Below are positions 4,931-56,500 of a stretch of 64,000 bases of DNA, piece by piece; positions within the stretch are counted from its first letter, which is position 1; every line of letters starts with the position of its first letter. Both the position numbers and the translations under genes were made by a program. Source of the DNA: Emiliania huxleyi CCMP1516 (lineage: Eukaryota); the NCBI RefSeq assembly GCF_000372725.1, contig NW_005201360.1:208881-272880 (forward strand), written 5' to 3'. The notes under the pieces are model-generated. The model saw nothing but the letters and a program-made list of their open reading frames with translations, was not told the origin of the DNA and did not search any database.

Positions 4931-6625
4931 TCAGCCGATCATCGCGAGCACCTCCGACACCGAGATGCTGGTCGTGTCGCCACCCGAGAGGGCCTCGGCA
5001 GCCACTTCACCATCGAGCAGAGCGAATAGCTCCTCTTCGGCCACAGTCGACGAGTCGCTGCCGAGCGAGGCGGAGGAAGAGTCGAACGACCTCGCAGGCG
5101 ACACCAAGGAGGCGACGCAGCTATCGCCGCCGTCGCCACCGCCGCCGCCGCCGCCGCCGCCGCCAGCAGCCCATTGTTCGACCTTCATCGCCTTGCCGCT
5201 CGCCTGAGCCGAGTGGGCCTCGCCAGGCGCCCGCCAGTGGCAGATGCCGCCAAAGGCGCTCTCCAGCGGCCGCTTGAGCTGATGGAGACCAAAGTCGAAG
5301 AGCCCCGACACGCACGGCGAGAGCGCGGTACAGAAGAAGTTGACGACGAGGCCGCTGGCAGCGTCCGTGACGCACACGCGCCGCACAAAGAGCGTGTGCG
5401 GGACGACCACCCTCGAGTGGATGTCCTCCGCCTCTGGTGCCAGCGGGACGCCCAGCCTCGAGAGCTGCTGGACGTAGTTGCTGTCCCGCCTCATGCACAG
5501 CAAGAAGGCGCCATCCGCCTGCACCTGGGCAGCCGACTGCAGCCGACCGACTGGCGACAGCGGCGCGCTCAGCGCCCGGCAGAAGGCGATCGCGAAGCGC
5601 TCGCGCTCTTCGTCTGCGTCGACGAGCCTCGGCGGCGAGCCGCTTGCCATGGACTGGACCGGCGTGGTGAAGTCCATGGAGCACGGCGAAGAGAGGTGCT
5701 CGGCGAAGTGCGGGTTCGGCAGCCAGCCGGGGTAGACGCCCAGCGAGGAGGTGCTTTCTCCGTTGAGGCTCCAGTACCTGCCCGCTGCGACGCTGCGCAC
5801 GCTGACCAGGCAGGGCGAGTTGAAGAGGCCGGAGACGGCTTCCGGGACGGCAATCGGAAGCGGACACCGACTGCGCCAGTGCCCCTCCGCCGCGCTCGTC
5901 TTGACGTCGGAGAGGGGGAAACGGAGCTGGTGCGCCGACTGCAGCGCAAAGGCGGCCAGGCCGCAGCAGTCCCGCGCTGCTGCGAGGTGGAGCAAGACGT
6001 GAAGCGCATACAGCAGCGCTGGGCGGTCGGTGAGCTTCCCACTGCACCCCAGGACGACGAGCTTGGTCATCTCCGCCGCAGCGGCACCGGTCGCTTTGCC
6101 GAGGTACACGGCTGCGTCGGCGGAAACTGGCATGGGGACGGGAAGCGGTGCGGGCGGCACTCTGGCCAGAGCTGTCGGCACCGCTCTGCCCAGAGCTGCC
6201 GCCGGCACGCAGCTGCTCGACGCCAGAGCTGTCGGTACCGCTCTGGCCACTGCCGCCGGCACGCAGCTGCTCGAGGCAAGGGCAGATAGGGGCCCGGGCA
6301 GGAAGAGGGGCTTGGTGGCAGCCTTGAGGGTGGCGGCCTCGTTGGCGGCCTTCTTGGGGTTCGAGTCGGAGAACAGCCAGGCCTGTTGCGCGCGCCGGGT
6401 CAGCTCCTTCTCCGACAGCCCTGGCTCCTCCCCCCGAAGTCGCATCTTGAAGCCATTCTTGAAGACGGTGCTTGCCTTGACGGTTTTCCGATGGTCCTGC
6501 TCGGGAACGCACTGGATGCCGAGGCGTTTGCAACGCGAGCAAGTGCGCACCGCGCCGTCCGGAGCGATCATGTCGCACTGCGTGCGAGCGCTGCGGCAGG
6601 ACCGGCAGAGCTTGTTGATGGTCAT
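4931..6625 (-). CDS. Zn(II)2Cys6 binuclear-cluster transcription factor with adjacent HMG/YABBY/CCDC124-like helical motif
   Basis: 564-aa ORF; N-terminal CRSCRSARTQC-x11-CSRCKRLGIQC fits Zn2Cys6 spacing; then FKMRLRGEEPGLSEKELTRRAQQAWLFSDSNPKK; internal duplication ALASSSCVPAA...RAVPT x2. Confidence 0.8.
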   Translation of the reverse strand: MTINKLCRSCRSARTQCDMIAPDGAVRTCSRCKRLGIQCVPEQDHRKTVKASTVFKNGFKMRLRGEEPGLSEKELTRRAQQAWLFSDSNPKKAANEAATLKAATKPLFLPGPLSALASSSCVPAAVARAVPTALASSSCVPAAALGRAVPTALARVPPAPLPVPMPVSADAAVYLGKATGAAAAEMTKLVVLGCSGKLTDRPALLYALHVLLHLAAARDCCGLAAFALQSAHQLRFPLSDVKTSAAEGHWRSRCPLPIAVPEAVSGLFNSPCLVSVRSVAAGRYWSLNGESTSSLGVYPGWLPNPHFAEHLSSPCSMDFTTPVQSMASGSPPRLVDADEERERFAIAFCRALSAPLSPVGRLQSAAQVQADGAFLLCMRRDSNYVQQLSRLGVPLAPEAEDIHSRVVVPHTLFVRRVCVTDAASGLVVNFFCTALSPCVSGLFDFGLHQLKRPLESAFGGICHWRAPGEAHSAQASGKAMKVEQWAAGGGGGGGGGGDGGDSCVASLVSPARSFDSSSASLGSDSSTVAEEELFALLDGEVAAEALSGGDTTSISVSEVLAMIG

Positions 6626-7011
6626 GAGATTGGAAGCAGCGACCGGGACAAGGATGTCGAAAGACTGAAGCAGCTAACCCGGACGACAAGGATTGTGGTG
6701 TGTCCCGAGACCTCGATAGAGAAACACAAAGTCCATAATACGTGGCTCGCGGCAACGCGAGACTTTACTTTCCGTGCAATATATTTTGAATTTCGTGTGC
6801 GTGATCTGGTCCGGGTTGCCTTCGTGTGCGACGCCCATTCCCCTCTCCTCGCCAACCAACGGTCTGCTATAGCCGCAGCCGCTCCTCGCTGCTCGGTGTG
6901 AACAGAGTTCGTACACCGAGCAGCGGAGCTCCGCAACTCGAGATCCCTCGAGAGTTCACGCGGAGTCGGCTGGGGCATCATACCAGCCAGCGTGTCCCCC
7001 CCCCCCCCCCC

Positions 7012-13729: not shown

Positions 13730-15535
13730 GCGCAAACAAGAATAACGCACGACAGCGGAGCTGGGAAGAGGACCGCCGCAAGCGGCGTGGCGTGGAGCGG
13801 TTGTGCATCCCTCCGGGGGCCCCTCTGCGCCGGGGAGGCGTTGTTGGAGGCTAGGACGCAAGCGTTCGTCGCCCTTTTCAAACTCGGGGCCCACTCCGCT
13901 ACGCTCCGACCCGAATTTGGAGGGCCTAAAAGTTTAAGGTGTTGCTGCGCAAAAGGGGTCGGACACCGGGCGCAGCTCATGCTAAGAGCTAGAAGAGGAG
14001 ATAGAGAGAACAACCACCCTGTCCCGTTATTGCGTACACCAACACCACAAAACGCTCTCTCTCTCCTGTCCTCACTCAGGGGGGTCACAACTACCAAGTC
14101 CCTCGACTAGCTGCCACAGGGCGCAGCTGCCACAGGGCGCAGCTGGAGACGCTCCCCCTCAATCGGCATCCACCCCCACCCGCTCCAGCCCCACTTCTGC
14201 TGCCGAGAGAGCTGAATCGAAGCAAGCGAGCCATTGCATCTTGGCGTGCTCCTGGAGCGCGGCTTTCTGCGGCCACGAGCACGGCGGAGTCGGCGTCGTA
14301 GCGCGCATCGTTCCCGCTCATCGCCCATTCCTCCCGTGACGTGTGTCGGCCGCGATTCGATGTCGCCACCTTCATCGCCAACGAGGACTCTCCCTCGACT
14401 GCAGGGGGGCTCCGGCGCGGGGAGGGACTCCGCCTGCTGCGCTGGCCGACTGCGCCCTCCTCCTCCATGGGCTCGATCCGATTCCGCAGCGGCGGTGCTG
14501 CGCGGGAGGCGGCCGCGGGCACGCTGGGCTCGATCAGCGGCTTTCCCCTCAGGTAGCGCGAAAGCACGGATTTGGCGGATTCTTGGCTTCAATTTTACGA
14601 ATGTCTTGGCACCAGCTGAAGGCTTGCACGGCGCACATCGCCGGATTCGTGCACGGTATTCGGATTTTGGCTATTTGCTCGTGTGGGGGTATATCGCAGA
14701 TTTGTCAATGGTACCGCGTCTGCGACGCGGGCGCCTTGCGAGCAGAGCCCTTAGGACACCCTTTATATCTTGCGCGGTCAAAACGTGCGGGGCTTCGTGT
14801 GAGAGCGTTTTGCGGCCCGCCGGGTGAGAGAACATGTGTCGTCTGATGTGTCACTCACTGTGTACGTCATATCAGTCTTGATAACAAGTACGGTCGATCC
14901 GTCAGCAAAGCGATACACTCGTCACGATCACGTTGGACGGCTTGCACGGAGCTCTGTGCCGGCACACAGGAAGAGCCGTCCGGCAAGAAGAGCTCGATAG
15001 GGAGCGAGAACCGTCAAAGGTGCTCGCGCAGGTTTCGGACGTCCGTCATGGTGCGGTCAGTTCCCCCCAGGTTTGACCGCGCAGGTCTCAAAACTCGTCG
15101 AGCACTCGTAGCCTTTCTGCGACTCTCTGCGTGCTGTGCCGGCTCGCGGGAAGAGCAGATTGAAGATATCTCAACGAGATCCGACATCTGCGCGGTCATT
15201 GTTGGGGTGATCTTACCGCGTCATGACGGAGTCTTGATACCTCTCGGAGCACCTCTAACGGTTCTCGCTCCCTATCCGAGATCTTCTTGCCGGACGGCTC
15301 TTCCTGTTTGGGCGCGCTGAGCTCGAAGGGCAACGGAAACGAGTGCATCGCTTCGATAGACCCGGACCGTGTGCTTGTTACCAAGACCGATCTCACGTAC
15401 ACAGTTACACTGCGCAGACGTCCTACTCTCCCATCCGACAACCGGCAAGACGCTGTCGTGAGCCCTAGCGTGAGCCAGCCGCTCTTGCGGCAGCCGTCAG
15501 CAGAGACCGAGCGCGTCGGGCGAGTGGAAATCGAG

Positions 15536-17733
15536 ATGGCGAGCCGGCCGTGGGCCCGGACGACGGCGCTGGCGAGCCGGACCGAGGCCGCGGCATCACG
15601 GCGGCGAGAAGGAGGGGCTTTGGCTGTATTCACGTGGAAGCGTAAGGGAGCCGAAAGCACTCCTGCGAACTGGGAAAATTCTTCTTTCTCGGCGCCCACC
15701 TCGCCGACGGCTCGGGGCGACCTGGCCTGGCTGCGCGCCTTCCTCTCCAGGCAGGGGACGAGCGGCACGTCGCTCGCGGCCCAGCTCGACGCGCGGCACG
15801 ACACCGAGAAGCAGGACACGCTGCTCACCTGGGCCGCTCGGCACGGGCAGGCCGAGGCGGCGCGGCTGCTGCTCGAAGGCGGCGCGAGCGTCGGGGGAAC
15901 GACTGGCGGCGGCGCGACCGCGCTGCACATCGCGTGCGGGAGAGGCCACCTCGAGGTCGCCCGGCTGCTCCGCGACGCTGGCGCGGCGGTCAACCAAGCG
16001 GATTCTGAAGGCCGCACGCCGCTGTACATCGCGAGCCTGCAGGGCCATGACCAGTGCGTCCGGCTGCTGCTCGAGGCGAGCGCGGCGGTCAACCAAGCCG
16101 CGGCGGATGGCGCCACGCCGCTGCTCCTCGCGTGCCATTACGGCCACGTCGAAATCGCCCGGCTGCTCCTCGAGGCTGGCGCAACGGTAAGCCAAGCCCG
16201 CCACGACGGCTCCACGCCGCTGTACGTCGCGTGCCAGAAGGGCCGCCTCGAGATCGCCCGGCTGCTTCTCGAGTCGAGCGCGGCGGTCAACAAAGCCCGC
16301 ATCAGCGGCTCCACGCCGCTGTACATCGCGTGCGAGAGAGGCCAGCTTGAGTGCGTGCAGCTGCTTCTCGAGGCTGGCGCGGCGGTCAACCAAGCCAAGG
16401 ACGGCGGCGCCGCGCCGCTGCCAGAGCGGCCAGCTCGAGTGCGTCCGGCTGCTGCGCGACGCTGGCGCTGACATCAACCAAGCGATTGATGATGGCACCA
16501 CGCCGCTGTACATCGCGTGCCAGAACGGCCACCTCGAGTGCGCCCAGCTGCTGCGCGACGCTGGCGCTGACATCAACCAGGCCGAGGAGAGCGGCGCCAC
16601 GCCGCTGTTCATTGCGTGCCAGAAGGGCCGCCTCGAGTGCGTTCAGCTGCTTCTCGAGGCCAGCGCGGCGGTCAACCGAGCCAAGCGGGATGGCGCCACG
16701 CCGCTGCTCATGGCTTGCAAGAACGGCCACCTCGAGTGCGCCCAGCTGCTGCGCGACGCTGGCGCTGACATCGACCAAGGGATAAACGATGGTCCCACGC
16801 CGCTGTTCATGGCGTGCCAGGAGGGCCAGCTCGAGTGCGTTCGGCTGCTTCTCGAGGCCGGCGCAGCGGTCGACCAAGCCAAGCAGGATGGCGCCACACC
16901 GCTGTTCGTTGCGTGCGCGCAGGGCCACCTCGAGGTCGCCAAGCTCCTCTCCTCCTTCGGCGCCTCCCGCGCCGCTACGCGCTACGGCACGCCCGAGGAG
17001 GTTGCAACCGAAGAAGTCCACGACGACCTCGCCGCTTGGCTGGTCGCCAGCCGCGGCTGGACGCCGCTCCAGCACCTCGAGGCGTGCCCCGAGACTAGCG
17101 GCCGAAGGCGCGCGCGCTGTCCTCACGCCCATTGCCCCTCTTCCGCAGGCGCTCACCTTCGAGCGGGCGCGGGCGCTGCTGCGCGGCGGCGCTGACCCGC
17201 TCGCCGGCGAGCCTTCTGCCCTCGAGCGGGCGCGCGTCCTCTGCTCGTGGAGCGAGTCGGGTCCGACCGCTGCGGCAGTCGGTTCCACAGTCGAGATCCG
17301 CTCTCTCGTCTCGCGGCCCTCGATGAACGGCAAGGTCGGCGTCGTCGTCTCCGCAAGCGCTTCGACGGCCCGCTTCGGCGTGCGCGTGGCGGACGAGGCC
17401 AAGGCACTCGCACTGAGGCGCGCTATGCAATGGTCTCTCCCCGACTCGCCGGAGCCTCCTTTTGACACACCTCTGCCCTCCCTCAGGCCGGCCAACCTGC
17501 AGCCAGCGGCCGAGGCGGTGGAGGTGGGCAGGCTCATCCTCAAGGCGGCGGAGTGGTCGCCGCAGTCTCACGAGCTCTTCTCAACGGCAGCTCGCAAGCG
17601 GGCGGTCGAGGTGATGCTGCTGGGCTACCTGATCGCTTGGGACGAGGATCGCTTCGACAGCCGCGAGGGAGCGGCCCCAGAGCTGGCGGATATCTGGCGC
17701 GGCTTTGTGCTGCCAAGGGTGGTGGCGCGATGA
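15536..17733 (+). pseudogene. Ankyrin-repeat protein (~12 repeats) with frameshift at 16420/16421; two 3' introns
   Basis: Repeated TPLxxAC..G.LE...LLL.AGA in ORFs 15287..16471 and 16347..17195; repeat 7 lacks ~11 nt; C-terminal exons end ...GFVLPRVVAR*. An assembly error cannot be excluded. Confidence 0.8.
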
Positions 17734-22771: not shown

Positions 22772-26062
<3,291 letters not shown>

Positions 26063-26299
26063 GCTTCACCCTCGACTTCGGCGGTGCAAGATGCAAGAGG
26101 CGGTGTGACACGGACGCTGTCGCTCGATTTTCTTATTCAGCCCTAAGGGAACTTCGTGATATGCTGTTTGTTAGTTATCCCGTTAGTAAGAGAGAGTTAG
26201 AGAGTTAGTATGAATGAGTCGGCTCGATCGAGATGCGCAAATGGATGGGGTGAAAGAAGAACGTGCAAGACTCATCCGTGGCGGCGTGAGTAAGTATGT

Positions 26300-26425
26300 A
26301 GGCAGATAGAGAGAGTGTAGAGCGACGCTGTATAGAGCTGTACAGATGTACTCGCTCGAGTAGAGCGGCTCTCTAATGAGCTGTGTGTATGAGGATAGAG
26401 GCTGTAGAGCTCTACAGAGACGATC
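26300..26425. repeat. CTGTAGAG/CTCTACAG motif-rich dispersed repeat remnant
   Basis: gctgtagagctctacag and variants; same motifs at 52530-52715. Confidence 0.55.
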
Positions 26426-26572
26426 GAGGGGTCCCGTACCATGCGGAATCGACCCTATCAAGTGCTCAAGTGCTCAAGGGCGGGAAGCGCTGCCAACTGA
26501 GCGATAGGAAAAAGTTGAAGGACGTACGACTGCCAAGCGGCACGCCTCCTTCGGCAGGACATTCGGCAGGAC

Positions 26573-29500
26573 ATGCTGCTCGCTCTGATTGCCGGCCCGG
26601 TGAGCGCCGTTCCACCGCTGCCTCCTTCCCCAGTCCCGCAAGCCCGGCCCACCTACAGGGACCGGAACGGCGTTGCTTGGTCCGGACTCGGGCAAGAGCA
26701 CCTCACTCTCGAGGCGCCTCCGTCTCCTGGGGTGTCGACGGGCCCCCGGGGGCGACGGGGGTGCTCTCGCGGGGGGTCCCCCCAGTCAAGGGGGTCTGGG
26801 GCGGCGCCCCAGGTAGCCCGCCGCAGGCGCCGATTTTTTCGGGCTTTTTTGACTGATTTTCATGAGGTGTTGCTACTATTTTGGGACCAGTTGAAGCCTA
26901 AAAATGGCTACAAATACAGCCACAACAGCGGCTAGTCGTGAGCTGCTACTGTGTGGCAGAGCCCATAGAGAGGGCTTTCAGGAGCACTATTCAGTTTGAT
27001 CCAGCTCAACGTTGCGGAGTAGTAAGACTGTTCCGTTACCGTGAGCGGCCGGCGGCCGGCGGCGGCCGGTGCGGCACGCGGAGCACTCCGTGAGCTGTGA
27101 CGGGTGCGGACGAGCGAATGAGAGGTCCCTTTCAGTGAGAGATAGGCAGCCCTAGTCTCTAATAACACATCTCCCACAGATAGCGACCTCTCATTCGCTC
27201 GTCCGCGCCCGCCACTGCTAGTCGGGGCACTCCCGGCGTGCGGCCCGGTCCCGGTCGTCACTCCGGTTGCTCGTGTTCACACCGTCAGAACTCAGCTCTG
27301 CTAAGGATCCAGCGTCTGAGACTTGGGCATCTTACACAACTTTTGTAGTAGAGCACAATGGCACCCTTGGATCAAGTGGATCACTTCATTAATACCGTAT
27401 ATACCGACCCCCGTTTTCGGCCGCCGCGGCCGGAGAGCACCCCCGTCGCCCCCGGGGGCCCGTCGACACCCCAGGCTCCGTCTCCGCCACCGGCGCCGCG
27501 CCAGCAAGTCAAGGAGGTTCTCTCCATGTGCATCGTCCTGGCCAGGGAGAGGTACAGCAAACATGGCGAGATCGATGCTGCAGCCATCCGAAGCACGATC
27601 GCTGGTGACCTTTTGGCAACATTCCCCCCCTTTGTACGCGTGACCTCAAGCACGGGCTGCGACCTGCACAACGAGAAGCGCCAGACCAGCAAAGACGACC
27701 TTGTGACGGCGCCTCTGGGAACTGAGCTGGTTGGCGACAACATCTCTGCTAGCCTGGTCGCCACGAATGTCACGACAGCGGTCGTCTCTGTCACGCTCCT
27801 AGACTTTACCAGCTCTCCATCGCTGCTCCACAAAATGTGCGATACCATGATAAAAAGAGCCCTGCCCGGTGAGGTGGAGGGCGACCAATGGTGGAACCTG
27901 TTCTACCTGCTGTGCTACCCTTCAGCTAAAGCGGTGGACTACCTGCTGATTGGGGCAGCGAAGCACCTTGTATCACCCGACTTGGATATGACTGTCGCCG
28001 CGGTCCGGGTGTTGGATGCGGATTGGAGAGTCACATCGCCCCGTTGGCGAACATCCGATTTCGCATGGCTGGTTCTATGGCTGCTGCCGATCTGGGCGGC
28101 AGTGCTCTTGCCTGCGGTCGTTGTCTGTAGAGCAGCATTGGGCCACAGACGTGCAGCGGTGCTGCAGGAGCTGGAACGCGCCTTGGACGCGATCGAGGTG
28201 GACAAGAACCGAAACCGCTTCCACGGAGCGGAGGCGGGCAAGGCCGTTCGCCAGACGAGGTGGCTCGCGCGTACTGTGCTCCTCTTGGCCGTCCCTCTTC
28301 TGCCCTGGCTGCCCGCCTTGGCTGTCCTCCCGGTCGCCCTCCCTCTCTCTCAGCAGGACGTCGCCTGTGCGGCGTGGGTCAAGTCGAGAGCGTTGCGGCG
28401 CGTCTGGCTTCTCTTGGGCTGCGCGAGTGGTGTCATCTACTGCGCCTGGCTCCTTGCGAGCTGGAGTCTGACCTACAGCGGGGAAGAAAAAGACCTGAAC
28501 CCGGTGGGAGAAATTATCGTTTGGCATAAGGTCTTCGTCAGCGAGTGCCACCAGCTCATCGGTCAGAGAGACGAGTACGAATCGTTTCGTCTGGGCGGCA
28601 AGAACGTCTATTATCCATTTCACGGCAAGGTCTGTAGCGCGTACCTGCACGCAATTCGGCCGGAAAACGCGCCCATCTTCGCTTGGATGCTCTTCGGCCA
28701 GGGCTGCGCCAGCCTGCTTCTTGCCTGCGTCTCGGGGGCGCTGCTGCTCAAAAGCGCGGGGTGCAAGGCCGTCCCCGGCGGCCGCTACCTCGCAGCGTTC
28801 GCGCGCTGCGGCGCAACGAGCGTCGACGGGCTGCTGGCTGGCGCTTCAGAGCGAGTCTCCGACAGATTTGCAGGCTCGGCTAAGGAGCTCGTCACCGGCC
28901 AGCCCGAGGAGGCGGCAACGGGGCTCTACGGGATCATCGGCTACGAGGAGGCGTACCTGCGAGAGCGCATGGCTGCGGGCACCGCCGCCATCGTCGCGGA
29001 GGCCGAGGCGCTGGGCGACCCGGAGGTGCTCGAGAACCTGCGCTACATCCTCGACGCGCCGGCCGGCTCAGTAACGCGCAATTCCACAACGGCTGGCGGC
29101 GCGACCGAGCCCCGGACGGCTCCAGCCTCCGCAGCCGTAGGGGCATGCGGCTCGCCGACTTTGTCGCGCTGCCGGTGGCTCGCAGGGCGCGGCTTGAGGA
29201 AGCGCACGTCGTCGCTTTGCGTCTGTATTCGACCGCCGCGTTTCGCGCTCTCAACGGCCCGATGCGCAACCTGAAGCTCAGCCCCTGCCGCAAGGACGAG
29301 GCGGGCAACCCCCTCCCGCTCGAGCCCCCGCAGCTGGCGGCGCCCCACCCGCAGCCCGTGACGATGGCCTTCATCTACGAGGCGTTGAAGCGGATGCGCG
29401 CCGTCGCCGCAGCGACGACGGTCGACCCCGAGTGCAAGAAGATGGAGGAATTGGCGGTGGCTGGCGAGCTCAGCCTGGAGACGCTGCGGCAGGCGTCGCG

Positions 29501-30020
29501 GCAGGCGCGGCGAGACGAGGAGGGAGGTGACGAGGAGAGCCAACAGGAGGGCTCCGGTTTGGAGGAGGGGCGGGCAACTGGTGTCAGCAAGAGCTCGTAC
29601 CTTGGCTCAGTCGACCAGAGCGTGGGCGAGGGGCACGGGGAGCGCACAGGTGCTGGGAGAGGCAGCGCGCCGCTGTCTGCGCTGCAAGCGGTGGCCCGGG
29701 CATTCGGGGACATGATTTGTTCGCCTCGCTTTCTCGCGCTCGGCGGGACTGAGTTTGCCTGCTGCAGCACGACCTCTCGGCTGGAGGTCGCGGCTCGCTA
29801 CGCGTGCGCCGCGGGCGAGAAGGCCTTGCTCTTCCGCATCAAGAGCAGCACATTTATGAACATGGGCGTGGACATCAGCGACTTCTCCGCGTTTCCGCAC
29901 GAGCAGGAGTGCCTATATCCTCCCCTCACGTACCTGCACCCCACCGGCGTCACCCACCGGCTTGTGCGCGACGACGTCCAGTTCGACGTGGTGGAGGTCG
30001 AGCCGTCGTTCCCGAGCTGA
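26573..30020 (+). pseudogene. Signal peptide + multi-TM protein with C-terminal mono-ADP-ribosyltransferase (R-S-E class) domain; disrupted by a transposon (26726-27475) and a 1-nt frameshift (~29068)
   Basis: MLLALIAGPVSA joins ORF 27358 in frame after removing the insertion; ~4 hydrophobic segments; ART motifs ALRLYST, VARAF, CCSTTSRLEVAARY, SAFPHEQECLYPP. Confidence 0.75.
26726..27475. mobile_element. 750-bp non-autonomous DNA transposon with 43-bp perfect TIRs and 8-bp TSD (ctccgtct)
   Basis: TIR cctggggtgtcgacgggcccccgggggcgacgggggtgctctc at 26726-26768, reverse complement at 27433-27475; ctccgtct at 26718-26725 and 27476-27483. Confidence 0.9.
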
Positions 30021-30344: not shown

Positions 30345-32614
30345 TCACACCATCGCCGCCTCGGCGATCTCTGAGGCCAGGCGCGCCGAGAGGCTCTGGC
30401 CGCTCCTCCGCTTCGCCGCGGGCGAGACGTCGCCCAGCGCAAGATTGGCCCCTTCAAACAGCTCGTCGGTGGTGGGCGTTGCGTGCTTGACAAAGGCGGC
30501 GAGGTCGAGGTACGAACTCTCTGCGTGCTGCGAGCGGTCGAGCCCGTCCAGCTCCTCAGCCTAGTAACGAGAGGGCTTTGGGGGCAGCGAGTGCTGGCAA
30601 AGGGGGGGGGGGGGGGGGCTTTGGCTCTGTGCCTCAGTTGTGCGCGCGCTGCCGAGCGTGCGCTCGATGGCGGCCATCACGAGCCACGTGCCCGCGCCGG
30701 ACCACGCAATAGCCACCGCCACGCCGAGCGCCTGCAGCCTTAGCTGGTCGAGCGAGCCGTCCGGGCCAGCCGGATTGACCTGAGGCAAGGGATAAGTCGG
30801 GAGTGTGGGCTCGACTCGGCCGCATCCTACCAAGTGAAGGTGCCCGCGAGTGATCCGTGTGTGAGGAGAGGGGGTCGACCTCGCTCGAGGCGTACACTCC
30901 GAGGAGCAGCGAGCCCACCACGCCCGTCACGCCGTGGATCGAGGTGACGTCGAGCGCATCGTCAATGCGGAGATACTCCTGAGGGAGGAGAGAGGGGAGG
31001 CATGGAGAGGGAGCTGGTGGAGAGGGGAGCAGCTGTGCTGTGTGGAGAGGGAGGCAGCAATGGGCGCCTTGAAGAGCAGCACACCGCCATACGAGGCGGC
31101 GCCGCAGACCAGCCCGACCACGAGCCCCGCCGAGGGCGTCACGTAGCCCGAGGCGGGCGTCACGCCGGCGAGCCCTGAGAGGGCGCCGTTGATGCAGCCG
31201 ACAAAGGTCGGGCGGCCTGCGTGGCCCCAATCGAGGGCGAGCCACACCAGCGCGCCGCCCGCGCCGGCGACGTGCGTGGACAGCAGTGCGCTCGCCGCGA
31301 GGCTGCCCACCGCGAGCGCGCTGCCCCCGTTGAAGGCGAACCAGCCAACCCACAGCAGCCCGGCGCCCGTGGCGGCCATCGGCAAATTGTGAGGAGCGAG
31401 CGAGTGGGAGGCAAGGCCGGCAAAGCCCACGCGCGGACCGAGCCGAAGCGCCGTCACGAGCGAGGCGACTCCGGCGGAGGTGTGTATGACGATGCCGCCC
31501 GCAAAGTCGCACACGCCGAGCCGGGCCAGCCAGCCGCCGCCCCACACCCAGTGGCAGAGCGGGTAGTAGACGAGGAGCGTCCTGCCGGGATGGTGGCGGC
31601 CGTGTGCTGGAGACCAAGGGTGACGGAGAGAGGAGCGCGGATGTGTGCGCGCCAGCCGACGATGAAGCCGAGGAAAGCCTCAAAGCGAAGCCGCTCCGCA
31701 AAGGCGCCCGTGCACAGCAGCGGGGTGATGGCGGCAAACATGCCCTGAAACGCGGCGAAGAGCACTCCAGGGATGGTGGGCGCGTTGGGCAATGAGGCCG
31801 TCCAGCCAACGCCAGCCAGGAACGGGTGGTTGAGCGCGCCTGTAGGAGCCGGGCAGTCAGGGGAGAAAGCGCCATGGGATAGCAAGGGAGGTTAAGAGCG
31901 GTGCGCCAAACAAGCCGCGGTCGACTTGCGAGAAGCAGAGAGAGAATCCGATCACGAACCAGAGCACGGTGAGGACGGCAACGCCAGCAAAGCACTGGAT
32001 CAGCACGGAGACCGAATTCTTGGCGCGGAGCAGGCCCGCCTGAGGTGCAGCGGTGTGCGACAGTGAAGGAAGCGGCGGTGAGGGCGGCGGCGGAGTAGGA
32101 GGCGGAGAATGCAGTGAGGCCGAGCGAGCAAAAGTGAGGCCTACCTCGAAGAGGCCGAGCGCGGGCACCATCAGCAAGACGCCCATCGTGCTCACCTAGG
32201 AACGCCCACTGGTTCAGGGACGCTCAGGGATCTGTTGCGTACCGGTGAAGAGCACACCAACATCCATGTGGTGTCGCCGCTGTCCAGCACACCCGCACTT
32301 GGTGCGACGGGGACCGTCGAGCAGAGGCGTTCCAACACGGCGGCGACCCCGATCGCAGCGGCCACCAGGATGTGCGGAAGCTGTGCAACAAATGCCACCC
32401 ACTGGCTCTTGCTCTCACTTGCGTAAACAGGCCGCTGGCTCTTGCTCGCGCGCTGCGGCGGCGCCAAGATGTGAGCGCCAGGAAGGGCGAATAGAGTCCG
32501 CTGCTGAGCCCGCTGTTCCACTCGCTGCGCAGCCGCGGTTGATGCGCGGTTGCTCTCAGCGGCGTCGCGCTCCGCGGCGGCGATGGCGCGCTCGATCGAA
32601 TTCTCAGTCTCCAT
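30345..32614 (-). CDS. AMT: Ammonium transporter (Amt/Mep/Rh family), multi-exon
   Basis: DSGDTTWML; FQGMFAAITP; DFAGGIVIHTSAG; LLWVGWFAFNGGS; GLAGVTPASG; DDALDVTSIHGVTG (both conserved His present). Confidence 0.95.
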
Positions 32615-32777
32615 TGTACCCTGGGGTGTGGAAGGGGGATTCAGCAGCGAGTTCTCGAGAGTTCGCGGCGGGCACTTCCGGGGGGTTTCTTCCGAAACGA
32701 ATAGCAGAGACCCGGCAAAAAAATATTCCCGCGTTGGCGGTCGAGGGCGAGTGGCCGGGGTGCGACAGGCATGTAAC

Positions 32778-33657
32778 ATGCGGCGTCGCGACACGGCGGC
32801 CCGCGTCGTCTCGGGCCTCTCGCAAGATCAGCTGCTCGACATCGTAACAGGCGTGTCGCCGCGGGCTGCTGCCGGCGGCTCCCCGTCGTGCCTGGAGTCT
32901 GGCTTTAGGTTGTGGACGGCCGATGAGGATGCGCTGCTTGTCGAGCAAAACGCACCAGTGGAGCGTCGTCACCGAGAAGTTGGGCACCGGTCGCTCGCAG
33001 AGCTGCTGCAAGCAACGCTTTTACCACCTATCCGGCACCGGCCGCGCCGCCCCGCCCCAGACGGGGCTCGAGTGGAGCTCGACGCTCCGCGGCCGCGCAG
33101 AGGAGCTCGTCCGGCAGCTCGCCTCGACGCAGACCTCTGCGACCCGTCGGGATCCCGCCGCCAGCGCCCCCGGCGGCGACGACCGCGCCGGCGTCCGCAC
33201 CGACGCCGACGTCTGCGCCCGGGCGGTGGCCCTTTGCGACGCCTTTGGGCGCAGCATGGATGCCCACACGCTCAGGTGCCGCGACATGAGGTGCTGCACG
33301 CGCATCGCGCTCGGACGAGAGTTCAACTTGGACTTGACGACCCTCGCGATCAGCACCGTGATCGTCGCGGACGCGAGCGGCGTGGATGTCAAGAAGGTGG
33401 CGTCGGCGGCGAAGCAGCTGGTGCACGCATTCAGGCCGATGAAGCACCTCCGGCCCGTCCTCAAGCTCACAAAGGGGCTCCTCATCGGAGAGCTGCCCTG
33501 CGGCGAGGTGCAGTTCGCAGATCTCCTCCCGCCGCCGCCCCCCGCCGTCCCGCCGCCGGAGCGGGGGGGCGAGAAGGGCGTGGACACCCCGCCACGTGTT
33601 AGCAAGCAAAAGAGGGAGCACCCACGGAGCACCCACGACCGAGTAAGTAAGAAGTAG
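32778..33657 (+). pseudogene. Myb/SANT-domain protein with a frameshift inside the Myb repeat (~32937)
   Basis: WTADEDALL in one frame continues as LSSKTHQWSVVTEKLGTGRSQSCCKQRFYHL in the next frame (ORF 32923..33657). Confidence 0.6.
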
Positions 33658-41159: not shown

Positions 41160-43203
41160 CTAGTCCTTGAGGCCCATGCCACGCCGCCGGTTCGAGCGCG
41201 CCACCTCCGCCTGCCGCTCGTCGGTGCGCGCGAGGAAGGCCTGCGGAGCGAGAGGGGGCCATCGGACGCGTGAGGGACGCGTCGCGGAACGTGCACGTCT
41301 CAGCAGAAGAGGTCGGAGGTGGGCCGAGACTGGCCGAGGTGTGTTGCGCGATGGAGAGGGGGACTGGCGGCGTCACCGCCTCGCCACTGACTGCCTCGCC
41401 ACAATTGCCCGTGAGAGTGTCTAGTAGTGTCTTTTGAAGTGGCTAGGGTGGTGTCTAGGAAGTGCCTCGCGCCTGCTTGGCGAGGTAGCCGTCCTTCGCG
41501 AACCGGTCCATCTCGTCGCGCGTCGCCTCGTCCTGCTTGCTCTTGAAGTTGCCCCAGTCGTGCCGCGACTTCTCCATCGTCGACATCTTCTTCTTGCCTG
41601 TGGCGCGGGAGGGAGGCGCCGGCGGAGGGTGTGCGCGGGTCGGCGGGCGGGCCGAGGGAGCTGAGGGGGAAACGGCAAAGCCTCGACGCCCGACTGCACC
41701 AATCCCTGCACCTCGGCCGCCCCTCGGCCGCCCCTCGGCTGCATCTCGGCTGCATCTCGGCTGCATCTCGCCGTCGAGCGAGGCGAGCAGCCCCTGCAGC
41801 CCCGTCGGCTTGGCAGCAGGCAGCTTCGGCGCGGGCAGGGCCGGCTTGAACTCGAGGCCTTCCGCCACCTGCAGGAGGGCCCCGAGCAGGCTGGGGGACG
41901 GCTCCTGTGGGCAAGCTCTGAACTCGAGGCCGCCCGCCACCGACGAGGCTGCCCCGCCCTGCTCCGCCATCTGCCTCTGCAGCGCCGACGACGCGTCGAC
42001 CGCCTGCGGGAAGGGTCGCGGAAGGCTCGCGGAAGGCTCGCGGACAGATCCGCCTCGTGCAGCGCCGAGGAGGCGATGGCCGCCTGCTGTAGCGACGGCT
42101 TGGCGGAGGGTGCGGCTGCGGCGGCGGCACCCTTGCCGCGCCCGATGCCGCCCGCCTCGCGCTGCTGGTAAGCGAGGTGCTCCTGGAGGTGGCGCTCCGG
42201 GAAGGTTCAGGGAGGGTTCCGACTCCCTCTGCGCTGCGGGTGGGGGCGGTGGCGGTTTCCTTGCTCCCCGCCTTGACCTGCTTGGTGACCACGAGCTCCT
42301 CGCCGCAAAAGTCGACCGCCTGCGGGACGTGTCATGAAGGCAGGGAGGGGCGAGTCGAGGGCAGCGGCGGAGCGGCGCAGTGGCCAGCCGCCGAGGAGGG
42401 GATGGTGGACACGGCCGCACGCGCCGAGAAGGGAACGTTGAGGGGTGGAGAGGGGGCGGGGACGCGCGGCGTGCCGACACGGCCTTCGCCCAGTCGCACA
42501 GGGGTGGAGGGGAAGCGGCGGAGGGAGAGCAGGCGTGGCGCGCCTGGGTGATGGTCACCATCCCGCTCCCCGCCCCGCCGCCGTCCGAGGGGCGCGACGC
42601 CGCGCCCGCCGTCTTCGCGAGGAGCGCCTTGATGTCGAGCCCGCCGCCCTTGCCCACCGCGCCGCCTCCTCCGCCGCTCCCGCTCCCGCCGCCCGCTTTT
42701 CCCGCCGCCGCGCCGGGCACTGCCCGTGCCGGCTTTGCTGCCGGCGCCCCGCCGTTCATCTCGGCCCACAGGTCGTCCACCTTTGTGTTGCTGCTCGCCG
42801 CCTCCGCCTCCGCCTCGCTCGGACCGCCCGCCTCGCCCGCCGCCTCGTCCGCCGCCTCGTCCGGCTCTCCCGCTGCGGCCGCCTCGGCCGCCTCGTCATC
42901 AGACAGCGCGATGCCGCCGCCGCGCTTCGGAGCACCGCCCGCCTTCTTCTTCTTCTTCGCCGGCTTCTTGGGCTTGGGCGCCTGCCGCTTCGCGCCCCGC
43001 CCCTTGCCCTCGCTGTCCGCCACCGGCCCCACTTCCACCGCCGTCTCGTCATACTCTAGGTCGCCGTCCGAGTCTGAGTCGCCCTCGCCGGCGGAGGGGG
43101 CGTAATCGGCGTCCTCCTCCTCCTCCTCGTCGTCCTCCTCGCCCTGATCCTTGTCCTCCTCCACCTCGTCCTCCTCGACCAGGTCGCGCACGGTAGTCGA
43201 CAT
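41160..43203 (-). CDS. SWC5: BCNT-C domain protein (CFDP1/Swc5, SWR1 complex subunit)
   Basis: Acidic N-terminus with DADYAP; KVDDLWAEM; C-terminal MSTMEKSRHDWGNFK...KDGYLAKQ|AFLARTDERQ. Confidence 0.85.
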
Positions 43204-43359
43204 CGATGACAGAGGTTCTGAGGCCCGTGAGGCGAAAGGCGAGTCGATGACACCCTCGAGTTGTTCGCGCCGTCGCAGTCGCAAAAACAAAAGCGAAATG
43301 ACCGGTGCGCGCTGGTGCGCGGGAACGAGACATCGGCGCCAGGCAACTCCACCAGTGGC

Positions 43360-44331
43360 ATGGCAACAGCGGGCGAGGAGCAGCCCGCGCATGCCGCTCC
43401 GACCGCAGACGAGTCCACGCTGCCCGCGCCCGACGCTCCGCCTCCGTCTCTGTCGGACCTTGGCCTCGCGGTTGGCGCGGAGGTTGAGGTGAGCTGGGAG
43501 GTGGAGCTGACCGACGGATCGTCGGGGAGCGTCTGGTGGTCGGGGCTCCTCGAGGCGGGCGTCGAGCCTGGCAGCCTGCAGTTGAAGTACGCGGCGGCGC
43601 ATGGCTTCGAGGAGGAGACACGAGCCGTCCGCTTCGTCGACTCAACGCTGCTCATGGATACGGCGCTGCAGGAGACGCTCTCGTGGCGCATGCCGGGAGA
43701 GGAGGAGGGGGAGGAGGAGGAGGAGGAGGGGGACGTTGCGGCGGGCGAGGCGGTCGGCGCCAAGCGTCCGCGCGAGGGGGAGGAGGAGGACGTGGCGGAC
43801 GGCTCGCTCCGCGTGGGCGCGCTCGTCAAGGCGCGGCTCGACGCGAGCGGGCGCTCCTTCTCGGCGTCGGTGCACGCGCGCAACGAGGACGGCACCTTCG
43901 ACCTGTCCTGCGACGGCTCGCTTGTGGAGGGCGTCCCTGCGGCGCTCGTCGAGCCGGTCGCGGTGGGCGCGGCGGTGGCGGACTCGCTGCTGCGCGACGA
44001 GCCGGGCGGACACATCGAGGGCACCTCCGCCTTCTTCGACGCCTTCACCGCCGCGCTCACCAGCGGGCCAAAGTTCCGCACGCTGACGGCGGCCCCGCAT
44101 CCGGCGGGCGGCGGACGATGCGCGCACCCGGCCTGAGCCTCCTCGGAATGTCCTCCGTAGGCGGCCCAGCAGGCGGTGGCGAGCGAGAAGGTGCAGTCGC
44201 TCCGGCCAGCGTTCGAGGAGGAGCTCGCCGCCCTCCGCGCCACGCGCGGCGAGGGCGCCACCGTCACCGACGTCGACATCCGGGAGATGATGCCGCGTGT
44301 GATGGCGCGAGCGGCCCGCGCAGCCACCTAG
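43360..44331 (+). CDS. Hypothetical protein with Tudor/SH3-like beta domains, 2 exons
   Basis: LAVGAEVEVSWEV...VWWSG; LRVGALVKARL...NEDGTFDL; intron ~44090-44160. Confidence 0.6.
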
Positions 44332-44768: not shown

Positions 44769-45530
44769 TCATACTGACTCCGTCTTGTTCGCATCCTTCT
44801 TCCTCTTCTTCTTCTTGACGCCCTCTGGCCGCGCCTCTCCGGCGCTGGCCCCCTCCCCCTTCTCTCTCCGCTTCTCCTTCCGCTCCTTCTTCTCCTTCCT
44901 CAGCCGCTTCTCCTCTCTGCTCCGCTTCGCCTTGCAGCCGTCCGTCCCGCCAACCTCCGGCCCGGCGGCGGCCGCCTCTTTCGCAGCACTGCCGCCGCTC
45001 GCGCCACTGCCTCCGCCGCCGTACTTCGCCATGAACTCCGCGTCCGCGTCGCTCACTCGCTTCTCCTTGCCCACCTGCAGCCCCGGATGCGCGCGGCGGC
45101 CGAGTCGGGCACCGCCGCAGAGCTCAAAGAGGGCGGCGTCGTCGAGGCCGGGGATGATGCCGCTGCCGGCCGGCTTGACGCCAAACAGGTTGACGGCCGC
45201 GTCGCCGGCCGCCTCGCGCTCGCGCTTCTTCTTCTTGCTCTTGGGAGGCTTGACCTTGTCGACCGGCGGGCGCGGGAGGTCGGCCGGAGGCGCCCAGCTG
45301 GTGGACGCCGCCTCGGTCTTCGCGCCCAGCCCGAGCAGGTCCGCGCGCTGCTTCACACTGATGTGCGACTTCATGCCGTCCTCGTTCTTGCCGAGCCCCT
45401 TGCCCTCCGCCCACCCAAACTTGGCCAGCATCTTGCGTCCAAAATCGCACGACATGTCGGCCGCCGACTCGTTGACCACCGCGCCGAGCGAGCCGCGCGT
45501 CTTGCGAGAGAGGAGGCTCTGGTCGAGCAT
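44769..45530 (-). CDS. G-patch domain protein (PINX1/GPATCH4-like), intronless
   Basis: FGRKMLAKFGWAEGKGLGKNEDGMKSHISVKQRADLLGLG; Lys-rich C-terminus. Confidence 0.9.
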   Translation of the reverse strand: MLDQSLLSRKTRGSLGAVVNESAADMSCDFGRKMLAKFGWAEGKGLGKNEDGMKSHISVKQRADLLGLGAKTEAASTSWAPPADLPRPPVDKVKPPKSKKKKREREAAGDAAVNLFGVKPAGSGIIPGLDDAALFELCGGARLGRRAHPGLQVGKEKRVSDADAEFMAKYGGGGSGASGGSAAKEAAAAGPEVGGTDGCKAKRSREEKRLRKEKKERKEKRREKGEGASAGEARPEGVKKKKRKKDANKTESV

Positions 45531-45856
45531 GATGAGAGCCGGGCAGCCACGAGTCCGTTGCAGCTGCTGCAACCTTGTACTGTGGAGCTGGCACGTGGGG
45601 TGAGCGAGGAGAGCGCACAGGCTCTCGAGGTCTCTTGGAATCCTCGTACTCAATTCTCGCAAATGGCGCCCAGCTAGCTTTGTTTTCTCCGTTTCCTTGT
45701 ACAGGGTACAGCGAGAAAACAAAACGGTCAACACGAAACAAAACGCACCTCTGCCTCCCTCTTGCAGCCCGGCACACGACTAATCTCGATGCTCGCGGTC
45801 CTCAACACCTCCCAACAACAACTCCAAACACCCACTCACGCCCTGGCCCTCACGCC

Positions 45857-53392: not shown

Positions 53393-53562
53393 CGTGATTG
53401 AAATCGCTGTGAGTAGCTGAGTGGTGTGAGAGTGCACTCTCCGTTTGTGTCGTTGTCGTTCTGTCGCCTGACTGATCAATTATGAAAGAAACGGAGGATG
53501 GGGCTCCTGTGTCGTCCAGGCCACGAATTCTTTTTACGTGGCTCTGGCCCTGTCGCGCTGCC

Positions 53563-56500
53563 ATGCCCATCACTGCCAGCTCGGGCTCCGCCGCCTTCGC
53601 CAAAGCGCGTCCCGACCTGGACGGCCTCATCAAGCGCCGCTTCTTTTACCGGCAGGCCTTCGAGATCTACGGCGGCGTCGCCGGCTTCTACACGTACGGC
53701 CCGCCCGGTGCGGCGGTCAAGCAGAACCTGCTCGCGCTGTGGCGGAAGCACTTTGTGATCGAGGAGAACCTGATGGAGGTGGACGACACCAACATCATGC
53801 CGCACGACGTCCTCTTCGCCTCGGGCCACGTCGAGCGCTTCAATGACTTTATCGTCAAGGACTCGTCCGACGCCAACCGCTTCTGGCGTGCTGACAAGCT
53901 GCTCGAGGAGGTGATGGAGGCGAAGATGGCAGACAAGGCGTGCACGCCGGAGCAGAAGGTGGAGTATCAAAAGGTGCACGCCCAGGCCGACGCCTACTCC
54001 GCCGAGCAGCTCTCTCAAGTCTTTGCCCAGTACGGCATCAAGGCGCGAGGCACCGCCGCCCGCTCTCCTCCACCGCCGCACCCTCTGCCCGCACAGTCAC
54101 ACCGCCACGTCTTCGCACCCTCTGCCCTCCACTGTCGCCGCGCCCATCCTCACTGCCACCGCCCTCGCCGCCGCCCTCGCCGCCGCCGCCCTCGCCGCCG
54201 CCTCCCACGCCGCCGCCCTCCCTCGCCGCCGCCTCTGCAGGCGCCCGAGAGCGGCGCCGAGCTGACGCCGCCCGAGGAGTTCAACTTGATGTTCGCGACG
54301 CCCATCGGCCCGTCGGGGATGATCCAGGGCTACCTCCGCCCAGAGACGGCGCAGGGCATCTTTCTCAACTTCAAGTTTTGCCTCGAGCAAAACAACTACG
54401 CGATGCCGTTCGGGATCGCGCAGGTCGGCAAGGCGTTCCGCAACGAGATCGCGCCGCGCTCGGGCCTCATCCGGCAGCGCGAGTTCACGCAGGCCGAGAT
54501 CGAGTACTTTGTCCACCCGCAAAAGAAGGCGCACCCAAAGTTCGCCGCCGTCGGCTCCCTCCAGCTCGAGCTGCTCCCGTCGCCCCAGCAGCTCGCAGCG
54601 CAGCCGGCGGTGCGCATGAGCCTCGCCGAAGCCGTCGCCGCCGGCACCGTCGCCAACGAGACGCTCGGCTTCTTCATCGGGCGCACGTACCAGTTCCTGG
54701 TCCGCGCGGGGTGCAAGGCGGAGCACATACGCTTCCGGCAGCACCTCCCAGACGAGATGGCGCACTACGCGTGCGACTGCTGGGACGCCGAGATCGAGAT
54801 GTCCCTCGGCTGGGTCGAGTGCGTCGGTGGTTGAGACCCGAGATTAGCCGAGATTAGCCGAGATTAGCCGAGATCGAGATGTCCGTCGGCTGGGTCGAGT
54901 GCGTCGGCACTCGTGCCCGACTGGTCCGCGTGCGTGCGCGCGCCGTGGTCAGCCGAGATGAGCCGAGGTGCGGCGAGACTAGGCATCGCCGACCGGTCGG
55001 CGTACGACCTGACCGTGCACGCCAAGGCGACGAACACCCCGCTCATCGCCGAGGAACCTTTCGAGGTGCCGGTCAAGGTTGAGCGGTACGGGCTGAGCAA
55101 GAAGGCTGCGGCCGCTAGATGCGGGACCTCTCCCCAGATCCTCCCCAGATGCTCCCCAGATGCTCCCCAGATGCTCCCCAGATGCTCCCCAGATGCTCCC
55201 CAGATGCTCCCCAGATGCTCCCCAGATCCTCCCCAGATGCTCCCCAGATGCTCCCCAGATCTCCCCAGATGCTCCCCAGATGCTCCCCAGATGCTCCCCA
55301 GATGCTCCCCAGATGCTCCCCAGATGCTCCCCAGATGCTCCCCAGATGCTCCCCAGATCTCCCCAGATCTCCCCGTATCTCGAGGCCTAGATGCGGGGAT
55401 GCAGAGGCCTGTACCTGCACTCCGACTAGCGCTCGAGAAGAAAGACACACCGTCCGTGTGCAGCTGTCTTCGTAGCCCTCGCGGTGACGCGGTGCTCCGA
55501 AGACACACTGCTCGACTCCGCCTCCTCCCCTACCCCTGGCGCACTCCTGACGCAGGCGGCGGCAGCACTCGGCAAGTCCTTCAAGAAAGACGCCAAGCGG
55601 GTGACGGGCAAGCTGGATGAGATGTCAGCCGAGGAGCTCAAGGCGCTCAAGGCGACGGCGGAGGCGGAGGGCAAGGCGCCGCGCGCACGCTCACACACAG
55701 ACCCAGCAGCGGAGCCCCCCCCCCCCCCCCCTCAACACACACGGCCGACGGCGGGGGGGGAGAGGCGCGTGGTCGGCGACGGTGGAGAGTCTCCCCACTG
55801 CGCGGCCTCCCTCGCCTGCAGGCGTCGCTGACGGTGAGCGACTGCGGCGGCAGCGACACTTTCGAGATCGCCAACGAGCTGCTCGTCTTCGAGGCGACGA
55901 GCGGAATTGCCCGACAGCCGAGAGGACAGCCGAGAGGACAGCCGAGACCAGCCCCGGGCCCTCGCCCCCCTCGGGCGTGTGGAGTAGCCCAGCTCCCTTC
56001 CCCCTCCCGCCAGGCGACAACCACGATCATGCACGTCGAGAAGTACACGCCCAACGTGATCGAGCCCTCCTTCGGCATCGACCGCATCCTGACCGCCATC
56101 TACGAGCACACCTACTCGGTGCGCGCAAAGGAGGGCGACGCGCCCGAGGAGCCGCCGCCCAAGAAGGGCGACAAGAAGGACAGCGCGACAGACGCCAAGC
56201 CGGGCGTGCTCGCGTTCCCGCCCGAGGTTGCTAACCCTACACCTTAGCCCCCGCCCCAACCCTAACCCTAACCGTGCTCGCCTTCCGCCCGAGTTTGCGC
56301 CGTACAAGTGCAAATCTCCCCCGATCTCCCCCTACCTCCCCCTATCTCCCTCCCTTAGGTTGCGCCGTACAAGTGCGTCGTGCTGCCGCTCGACATGCGG
56401 ATTGTCCGCGAGTGCGAGTACGCCGGTATGCGCGACGCGCTGCGCGCCACCCTGTCCGAGCAGGGGCTGCAGTACAAGGCTGGACGGGCCGGCGCGCCTC

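Follow-up and report, generated by a model that had tools for sequence, protein, structure and literature searches.

The gene that runs from position 26573 to 30020 on the forward strand of a 64,000-nucleotide stretch of the Emiliania huxleyi CCMP1516 genome (assembly GCF_000372725.1, contig NW_005201360.1, positions 208,881 to 272,880; the whole stretch is referred to here as the window) raises a double question: what kind of protein does such a gene encode, and can the copy found here still make it? An initial annotation had proposed a receptor-like membrane protein with a toxin-type ADP-ribosyltransferase (ART) domain, a member of a variable algal sensor-effector family active in immunity or cell death and switched off here by two lesions. 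The present analysis points to an intact protein that is probably a receptor-coupled, cytoplasmic arginine mono-ADP-ribosyltransferase, as judged from sequence comparison and structural modelling. The window copy is indeed switched off, by three lesions rather than two, as an in-frame 54-nt deletion had been missed, and is very probably a recent null allele. The copy itself is a pseudogene, and the interest of the locus sits in the family.

An undamaged counterpart is provided by a metagenome contig, L001, which is 93.7% identical in DNA to the window over 3,051 columns, matches its downstream flank up to 30525 and carries the gene as a single open reading frame (ORF) of ∼950 codons from its methionine. 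Relative to the window, L001 lacks an inserted element and has one additional base at 29069 and 54 additional bases at 29705. Its sequence reads straight through the sites of the window's frameshift and of the acidic insert, ruling out an intron at either place. The two window ORFs are one ORF in L001, so that separate genes are also ruled out. The gene had been described as intronless, and the absence of introns from L001 and from the paralogues L002 and L004, each a single ORF, bears this out. The window was further compared with eight of 20 listed runs, all as contigs and for the listed pieces only: four DNA-like runs (X5 and X6 guessed to be DNA, X1 and X7 of a kind not on record) and four RNA runs (X11, X12, X13 and X14).

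In the window the gene opens with an ATG at 26573, followed by a short hydrophobic stretch and a Pro-rich stalk; this 5' coding piece spans 51 codons (26573–26725). The start had been read as a signal peptide, and a signal-like reading is upheld by the hydrophobic N-termini of most full-length relatives. The end of the stalk and a conserved alpha/beta ectodomain follow at 27484–28059, the ectodomain beginning at 27508; in comparison with X1, X6, X11 and X12 the stalk is 33 nt shorter, in frame, at 27502–27505. With the inserted element set aside, ∼243 codons (51 plus 192) precede the first membrane segment, close to the ∼250 residues first estimated. The four hydrophobic segments that had been noticed are visible as hydropathy peaks at 28069, 28273, 28402 and 28675. 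They lie in a membrane module (28060–28749) composed of a first transmembrane segment (TM1) at 28060, charged helices, a putative Pro-kinked hydrophobic hairpin at 28273, a TM at 28402, an outer loop with a Cys pair and a last TM at 28675. The ARTC-type (R-S-ExE) domain occupies 28864–30020, over two frames in this copy, with the stop at 30018–30020. It houses a low-complexity, predicted disordered insert (29403–29705; predicted local distance difference test (pLDDT) below 50 for model residues 244–300) with the motif VARAF (29691) at its end, the Ser motif STT of the second catalytic strand (29766–29774), and the E-x-E motif, an arginine-acceptor signature plus catalytic Glu, which reads EQE, encoded by GAGCAGGAG (29901–29909).

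The first lesion is a 750-bp non-coding inverted-repeat element (26726–27475) with 43-bp perfect terminal inverted repeats, flanked by an exact 8-bp target duplication (26718–26725 and 27476–27483). It introduces a stop, and the reading frame from 26573 ends after 120 codons; the sequence 3' of the second duplication stays in frame with the 51 codons 5' of the element. The site is free of the element in X1, X5, X6 (a skip of 758), the RNA runs X11 and X12, and L001; in X7 a joint spans the site with undefined filling. Short, non-coding, bounded by terminal inverted repeats and a target duplication and present in many copies, with empty sites elsewhere, the insertion has the attributes of a miniature inverted-repeat transposable element (MITE). 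An 8-bp duplication is a trait of hAT-like MITEs; no partner transposase was identified and no superfamily is assigned. Internally, a 51-bp inverted repeat is present (27093–27219). The terminal repeat was in none of nine loci compared, and a second copy of the element was not found in the window. An in-frame GT (26732) and AG (27473–27474) near the two ends are so placed that the element might be spliced out in the manner of an introner; RNA from a filled version was not seen.

The second lesion, at 29066–29070, consists of one base fewer than in other versions and shifts the frame in the helical half of the ART domain; near 29070 the third-position GC passes from one frame to another. The extra base near 29068–29069 is present in X1, X5, X12 and L001; X13, which may represent a paralogue, has a net extra base amid other differences, and the other four runs have no listed contig there. 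Since no reads from the strain of the window were identified, this single-base gap, at ∼29069, may reflect an error of assembly. The third lesion is an in-frame deletion of 54 nt at 29705/29706, with 2-nt microhomology at the breakpoint. The missing bases are present in L001 and in X1 record 6, X5 record 13 and X12 record 13, the position being spanned by no listed contig of X6, X7, X11, X13 and X14. The element and the 54-nt deletion look like real mutations. Because the ART fold begins near 28864, 5' of the frameshift, the latter interrupts the enzyme domain. No enzyme can be made from the window copy, because a stop arrives after 120 codons and, beyond the element, the ART domain is frameshifted and deprived of the strand that bears the catalytic arginine.

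The 54 bases absent from the window encode the first catalytic strand of the family. Within a set of 174 proteins, all of the 120 chosen by pattern match to the Ser-strand and ExE-region motifs (some near-duplicates included) carry [WYFH]RG upstream, and 118 carry ExE; the window ORF is devoid of any [WYFH]RG. Across 75 aligned sequences R312, on strand 308–315 of the intact versions, is invariant, as is S335 on strand 2, and the catalytic E382 on strand 5 is found in at least 90%. The Ser and the Glu are both kept in the window, where STT and ExE had been correctly recognized, and the residue two positions before the catalytic Glu is also Glu in the window and L001. The initial annotation had cast the Arg of VARAF as the catalytic one, and this assignment fails: the native LWRG strand is deleted and, in the L001 model, VARAF falls in a low-confidence helix (285–295) at the end of the disordered insert, LWRG forming strand 308–315. 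On this model the VARAF Arg, which has neither the aromatic nor the Gly neighbour of the family motif, is not the native catalytic Arg and derives from the helix of the insert. The misreading arose because the deletion puts VARAF in register of LWRG. Next to the catalytic Ser, Cys-Cys directly precedes this residue in the window (29757–29774), L001, L002, L004, P0017 and P0021, and Pro-Met does so in most of the family; redox sensitivity of the Cys pair is a speculative possibility.

No more than a few codons beyond VARAFG, two other near-identical products are broken as well. The frame changes there in P0001, on one contig and perhaps through error, and P0002, P0010 and P0011 (two MMETSP transcripts and a JGI record, on three contigs) switch to unrelated sequence. 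Together with the deletion in the window, three different breaks fall within ∼15 codons just 5' of the catalytic-Arg strand; insertion followed by imprecise excision, a fragile site or selection for a dead enzyme could each explain such recurrence. The foreign tail of P0010 resembles window positions 32746–32832 on the minus strand (62% over 29 residues, E 5e-5 within the window). In the cluster of P0021, P0176, P0182 and P0185 finish at ∼590 residues with a Pro-rich tail and lack the ART, which suggests broken or rearranged versions in that paralogue too.

The fold was modelled on the intact version: the last 417 residues of L001 were used with a 75-row alignment, the window's own broken sequence not being the one folded. 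The model (pLDDT 82, predicted template modelling score 0.78) matches Vis, HopU1, VIP2 and C3 with a Foldseek probability of 1.0. In the VIA structural realignment rat ART2.2 stands at the top (Z 17.4, root-mean-square deviation (rmsd) 3.3, 211 of 223 residues), followed by HopU1 (Z 15.1), ExoS (14.9) and XopAI (14.4). Structure prediction, suggested earlier as a check, therefore yields the expected ART fold, and the profile search put forward alongside it gives a concordant answer, the last window frame (to 30020) matching Pfam ART PF01129 at E 7e-5, just above the cut-off (22.6 bits as against 22.3). Neither outcome named beforehand as refuting the initial reading was encountered, the fold being ART and the two ORFs being one in L001. 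The best PDB sequence-profile match is ExoT (E 1.6e-6). The structural match starts at model residue 22, which places the domain start near window position 28864. A separate 'pre-ART' domain was considered and rejected, as the region is the helical half of the ART fold in the match to ART2.2. The intact protein is thus predicted to be an ARTC-fold, R-S-ExE enzyme. Its arginine specificity may be inferred from ExE, a motif said to define arginine-specific ADP-ribose transfer in PMC3102197.

The term toxin-type is correct in pointing to an ART fold and loose as a label, since the best match is a vertebrate enzyme, ahead of the bacterial effectors. With the vertebrate ecto-ARTs (rat ART2.2, PDB 1gxy; PF01129) the algal protein has in common the whole fold including the helical N-terminal half, the R-S-ExE triad and attachment to the membrane. 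The vertebrate enzymes are outward-facing and either secreted or anchored by glycosylphosphatidylinositol (GPI), according to a table in PMC7955679, whereas the algal ART is placed behind a multi-pass module, with a predicted inward orientation, contains a disordered insert of ∼100 residues and is 15% identical to ART2.2. The L001 protein ends in PSFPS with no hydrophobic tail; with a multi-pass module before the ART, and on the putative topology, it departs from a GPI-anchored or secreted extracellular ecto-ART. Fold (Z 13–15) and ExE are shared with HopU1, ExoS/ExoT, XopAI, Vis and the 6dre/6drh toxin. These bacterial effectors and toxins enter other cells, whereas the algal product resides in the membrane of its own cell, begins with a signal-like stretch and lacks a delivery domain: binding, translocation or secretion-system domains gave no Pfam match in L001, L002, L004 or P0017. 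A search for close relatives produced 21 pattern matches in viral contigs and six in prokaryotic genomes, none of them confirmed, and viral ART folds match at 10–21% identity only.

On which side of the membrane does the enzyme lie? The ectodomain and membrane part were modelled from a 24-row alignment (pLDDT 70.8). The modelled ectodomain is alpha/beta, with an order of elements resembling a ferredoxin or SEA fold (beta-alpha-beta-beta-alpha-beta). Foldseek returned no significant match for this model (E > 0.6), Pfam found nothing in the ectodomain or membrane module, and the ESM Atlas gave no usable match for this part. A wide structural search with the membrane part retrieved generic helical bundles, the best being 8k7t_B (Z 9.9, rmsd 3.3, 130 aligned), where Z ∼13 is the tool's level for meaningful matches of this type; an MS4A/tetraspanin-like comparison scored below that level. 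The second membrane segment has a conserved PW.P kink and basic flanks and is modelled as two helices (336–359 and 363–376). Read as a hairpin, this segment leads to a predicted five-helix topology (TM1, hairpin, TM, outer loop, TM) with the N-terminus out and the enzyme in, because the number of segments then becomes odd and the C-terminus falls inside.

Composition and relatives lend themselves to the same placement. Over 16 proteins, Lys and Arg per 100 residues amount to 17.7 after TM1, 11.2 after the hairpin and 9.5 after the last TM, as compared with 7.0 before TM1 and 6.7 in the Cys-containing loop. Among 13 members, glycosylation sequons number 40 in 4,456 residues before TM1 (23.0 expected from composition) and 11 in 5,738 residues of the ART part (16.1 expected). 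Ten single-pass relatives with LRR, ANF-receptor or kelch ectodomains were picked by hand; eight show one TM, 3–7 Lys/Arg and then the ART, the remaining two being an artefact and an ambiguous case. Soluble relatives fuse the ART to cytoplasmic domains (kinase, TIR, PH/FHA, EF-hand, A20 zinc finger). From these sequence features the enzyme is predicted to lie on the cytoplasmic side. P0017 and P0023 have extra membrane helices after the module, apparently in even number, and the enzyme would stay on the same side.

The gene belongs to a variable family, as the initial annotation had surmised, and the family is sizeable. A cluster-representative search gave 47 matches. A profile of the membrane module, built from nine members, matches 30 of the 174 proteins; in 14 of them a complete ART forms the C-terminal end, the remaining 16 being incomplete gene calls or missing part of the motif set. 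In a FastTree phylogeny of 117 ART cores (214 columns, midpoint root), 18 group members fall together with P0127 in one clade (support 0.97); four of the 18 are fragments of genes that the count already includes. N-termini in this clade range from fewer than 100 to ∼1,390 residues, and the diversity that had been anticipated is evident: stalk only, CUB-like (by eye), Cys-rich, tandem repeats, beta-helix and ephrin-receptor-like repeats. The insert inside the ART measures 91–270 residues in 13 of 14 clade members, the remaining value of 7 being a likely pattern artefact, against a median of 30 elsewhere in the family. At E 1e-10, 109 matches were recovered among 7,993 candidates of 735–2,095 residues, so that at least 109 long proteins carry this ART, in many cases downstream of a receptor-type ectodomain. 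Its partners in the wider family include LRR, ANF-receptor, kelch, WD40, ankyrin, kinase, TIR and PH/FHA domains, and further EF-hand with GTPase, A20 zinc finger, RCC1 and ion-transport domains. P0042, P0123, P0125 and P0171 display architectures with two ART-like stretches in one protein, an ion-transport/TRP-like membrane domain with ART, or TIR with ART (P0171). A search by words, for which the ectodomain and membrane part served as query, found nothing among 7,990 proteins of 925–2640 residues and is uninformative, as the clear relative P0017 was also missed.

Named members come from E. huxleyi CCMP1516, Chrysochromulina tobinii, Phaeocystis cordata and the cryptophyte Hemiselmis, the closest named paralogues being E. 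huxleyi proteins; no second ART gene was found in the window. UniRef entries labelled 'Mono(ADP-ribosyl)transferase' by the database (EMIHUDRAFT_114014, _101896 and _99931; Ctob_000080) belong to the same ART family, and EMIHUDRAFT_114014 and _101896 have the ectodomain, membrane module and ART layout of the window gene. A published description of this architecture or of the function of these paralogues was not found, supplements to genome papers lying outside the material covered. The 2015 ART review by Aravind is said to treat eukaryotic R-S-E ART expansions, and the family may have been noted there.

Two lines of evidence bear on whether such genes are in use. RNA contigs in four marine field metatranscriptomes cover 21–27 of 30 gene bins, and those of X11 and X12 show the site without the element. 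The ratio of element to gene depth is 16–296 in the four DNA-like runs and 0.12–0.25 in the four RNA runs, depth being a measure here of neither copy number nor expression level; because the ratio reverses between the two kinds of run, the RNA contigs are unlikely to be DNA carry-over. The N-terminal half of the ART is under purifying selection between the window and L001, with one non-synonymous and 11 synonymous differences in 187 codons, a non-synonymous to synonymous ratio (pN/pS) of 0.03. Such a low value implies that the loss in the window copy is recent. Between the same two sequences pN/pS is 0.78 in the outer parts and 0.22 in the core (Fisher p 0.02, or 0.055 with the insert assigned to the inside). 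Positive selection was considered and rejected as an established finding, given that pN/pS never exceeds 1 and that the excess is only partly repeated in a paralogue.

Several observations weigh against a receptor-coupled enzyme that faces the cytoplasm and serves in defence. Regarding topology, there are four hydropathy peaks, and four true passes would place the enzyme outside; the Lys/Arg values after the hairpin and the last TM are just modestly above those of the outer segments; and ART2.2, the top structural match, is an ecto-enzyme. Taken at face value, the peaks and the match describe a surface enzyme like ART2.2, with the ART outward, using NAD+ from lysing neighbours to modify surface proteins, and in the mouse, cell death of this sort through ARTC2/P2X7 and released NAD+ is known. 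This arrangement is improbable, because the second segment is modelled as a Pro-kinked helix pair with basic flanks, sequons are few in the ART part, and the single-pass relatives and soluble kinase and TIR fusions place the same domain inside. As to use and selection, all RNA evidence comes from mixed-community contigs, which give no level, strand or transcript ends. No region has pN/pS above 1, and the regions were drawn after the clustering had been seen. Among nine near-full-length versions of the paralogue, variation in the ectodomain (0.047) is no greater than in the disordered insert (0.045), and the outer loop shows no excess (0.022). Relaxed constraint accounts for the variation of the outer parts as well as an arms race does. 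A membrane-anchored cytoplasmic mono-ART engaged in routine regulation, its outer domain an anchor, spacer or adhesion part rather than a switch and with no tie to defence, would fit such relaxed constraint; it would also fit RNA contigs in four field metatranscriptomes that give no sign that induction is needed, and the tendency of eukaryotes to reuse these domains mostly for protein modification, as PMC3417536 has it. Such a role is unlikely, if by no means negligible, in view of ectodomains swapped across the clade (from none to CUB-like by eye, Cys-rich, beta-helix or ephrin-receptor-like repeats), the LRR, ANF-receptor and TIR partners of the wider family and the recurrence of broken versions.

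Two further alternatives concern the activity of the domain and the state of the window copy. Some ARTC enzymes hydrolyse NAD+ and one TIR fusion exists in the family (P0171), so the domain might act mainly as an NAD+ glycohydrolase that drains NAD+ once activated rather than as a protein transferase. The presence of ExE in 118 of 120 proteins, a motif tied to arginine transfer in PMC3102197, makes this a still less probable option. Finally, the window copy may not be null in vivo: the missing base would be an assembly error, the element would be spliced out, and the product would be a receptor that is catalytically crippled or a decoy. Splicing from the GT to the AG within the inverted repeats would take out 743 nt and spare 15, with the frame kept; the 54-nt deletion does not shift the frame, and an Arg still stands in register after it; and the window's own reads were not seen. 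However, no RNA joint fits that splice, the joints seen being those of the empty site; the VARAF Arg is without the aromatic and Gly neighbours, and two further assumptions are needed. This last scenario is very improbable indeed.

For the preferred reading, a receptor-coupled cytoplasmic transferase, the following course of events may be envisaged. The ectodomain and outer loop would bind a ligand or surface, and the conserved helix-hairpin module would relay a change across the membrane. Activation might come about through clustering or when the long disordered insert next to the NAD+ cleft is released; located just before the Arg strand, this insert is a candidate for autoinhibition or self-modification. 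The ART would then move ADP-ribose from NAD+ to arginines of cytoplasmic proteins. The whole may detect other organisms or viruses and respond by signalling or cell death; an immune or cell-death role is plausible, and putative.

Receptor-like kinases and receptor cyclases are characterized by a variable ectodomain, a membrane anchor and a constant cytoplasmic enzyme. By analogy, the LRR-TM-ART and ANF-TM-ART relatives repeat that layout; unlike in those receptors the output enzyme here is an ART, and ligand control is putative. Layout and topology indicators agree on a variable ectodomain and a constant enzyme across the membrane, the number of passes being a matter of prediction. In favour of a defence role one may cite the exchange of ectodomains, the LRR and TIR partners, the greater variability of the outer parts and the repeated occurrence of broken versions. 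Haptophytes may, as a tentative proposal that falls short of even odds, run a large undescribed class of receptor-ARTs as polymorphic surveillance against viruses, bacteria or grazers, with null alleles segregating between strains. Under such surveillance one arginine-specific ART would be coupled, much as the kinase is in receptor kinases, to LRR, ANF-receptor, kelch and ephrin-like sensors and to the multi-pass ones of this clade, a conjecture to be held with the same reserve.

The surroundings of the gene are mixed. The claim that it is flanked by repeats holds for a 60-bp repeat upstream (26417–26478), and requires amendment in that the main repeat is inside the gene. The upstream repeat reaches a depth of 305,891 in X1 compared with 68 for the gene, and exceeds gene depth also in the RNA runs X11 and X13; its loose ends share the sequence before it and are diverse after it, as at the end of a very abundant repeat. 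On the minus strand a divergent membrane-protein gene lies upstream (25070–26065), with introns rich in ATCTCGGC-type repeats and no Pfam match on the pieces tested. Downstream, an intron-containing ammonium transporter gene (30500–32300, minus strand; PF00909, E 2e-49) shows no sign of a functional link. A Myb-like stretch (32508–33657, plus strand), recognized by eye over two frames and with no Pfam match, is possibly a dispersed repeat. Elsewhere in the window are genes for a Zn2Cys6 protein (4934–6673, minus), an ankyrin-repeat protein (15227–16468, plus), a BCNT protein (41458–43641, minus), a G-patch protein (44772–45779, minus) and a class II tRNA synthetase (53476–54831, plus).

Arginine-specific ARTs seem to be lacking in unicellular eukaryotes according to a 2010 review (PMC3102197), and a 2012 paper derives eukaryotic mono-ARTs from bacterial toxins without naming algae in its accessible part (PMC3417536). 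Algal membrane ARTs are not described in the parts seen of these two papers or of PMC3482391, PMC7955679, PMC8125044 and PMC12480563. If ligand control is confirmed, the family would introduce a new output enzyme for receptor signalling, and algae that form blooms and succumb to giant viruses would have in it a candidate system for sensing or defence. The natural null and intact versions of one gene allow a strain-association test without genetic tools.

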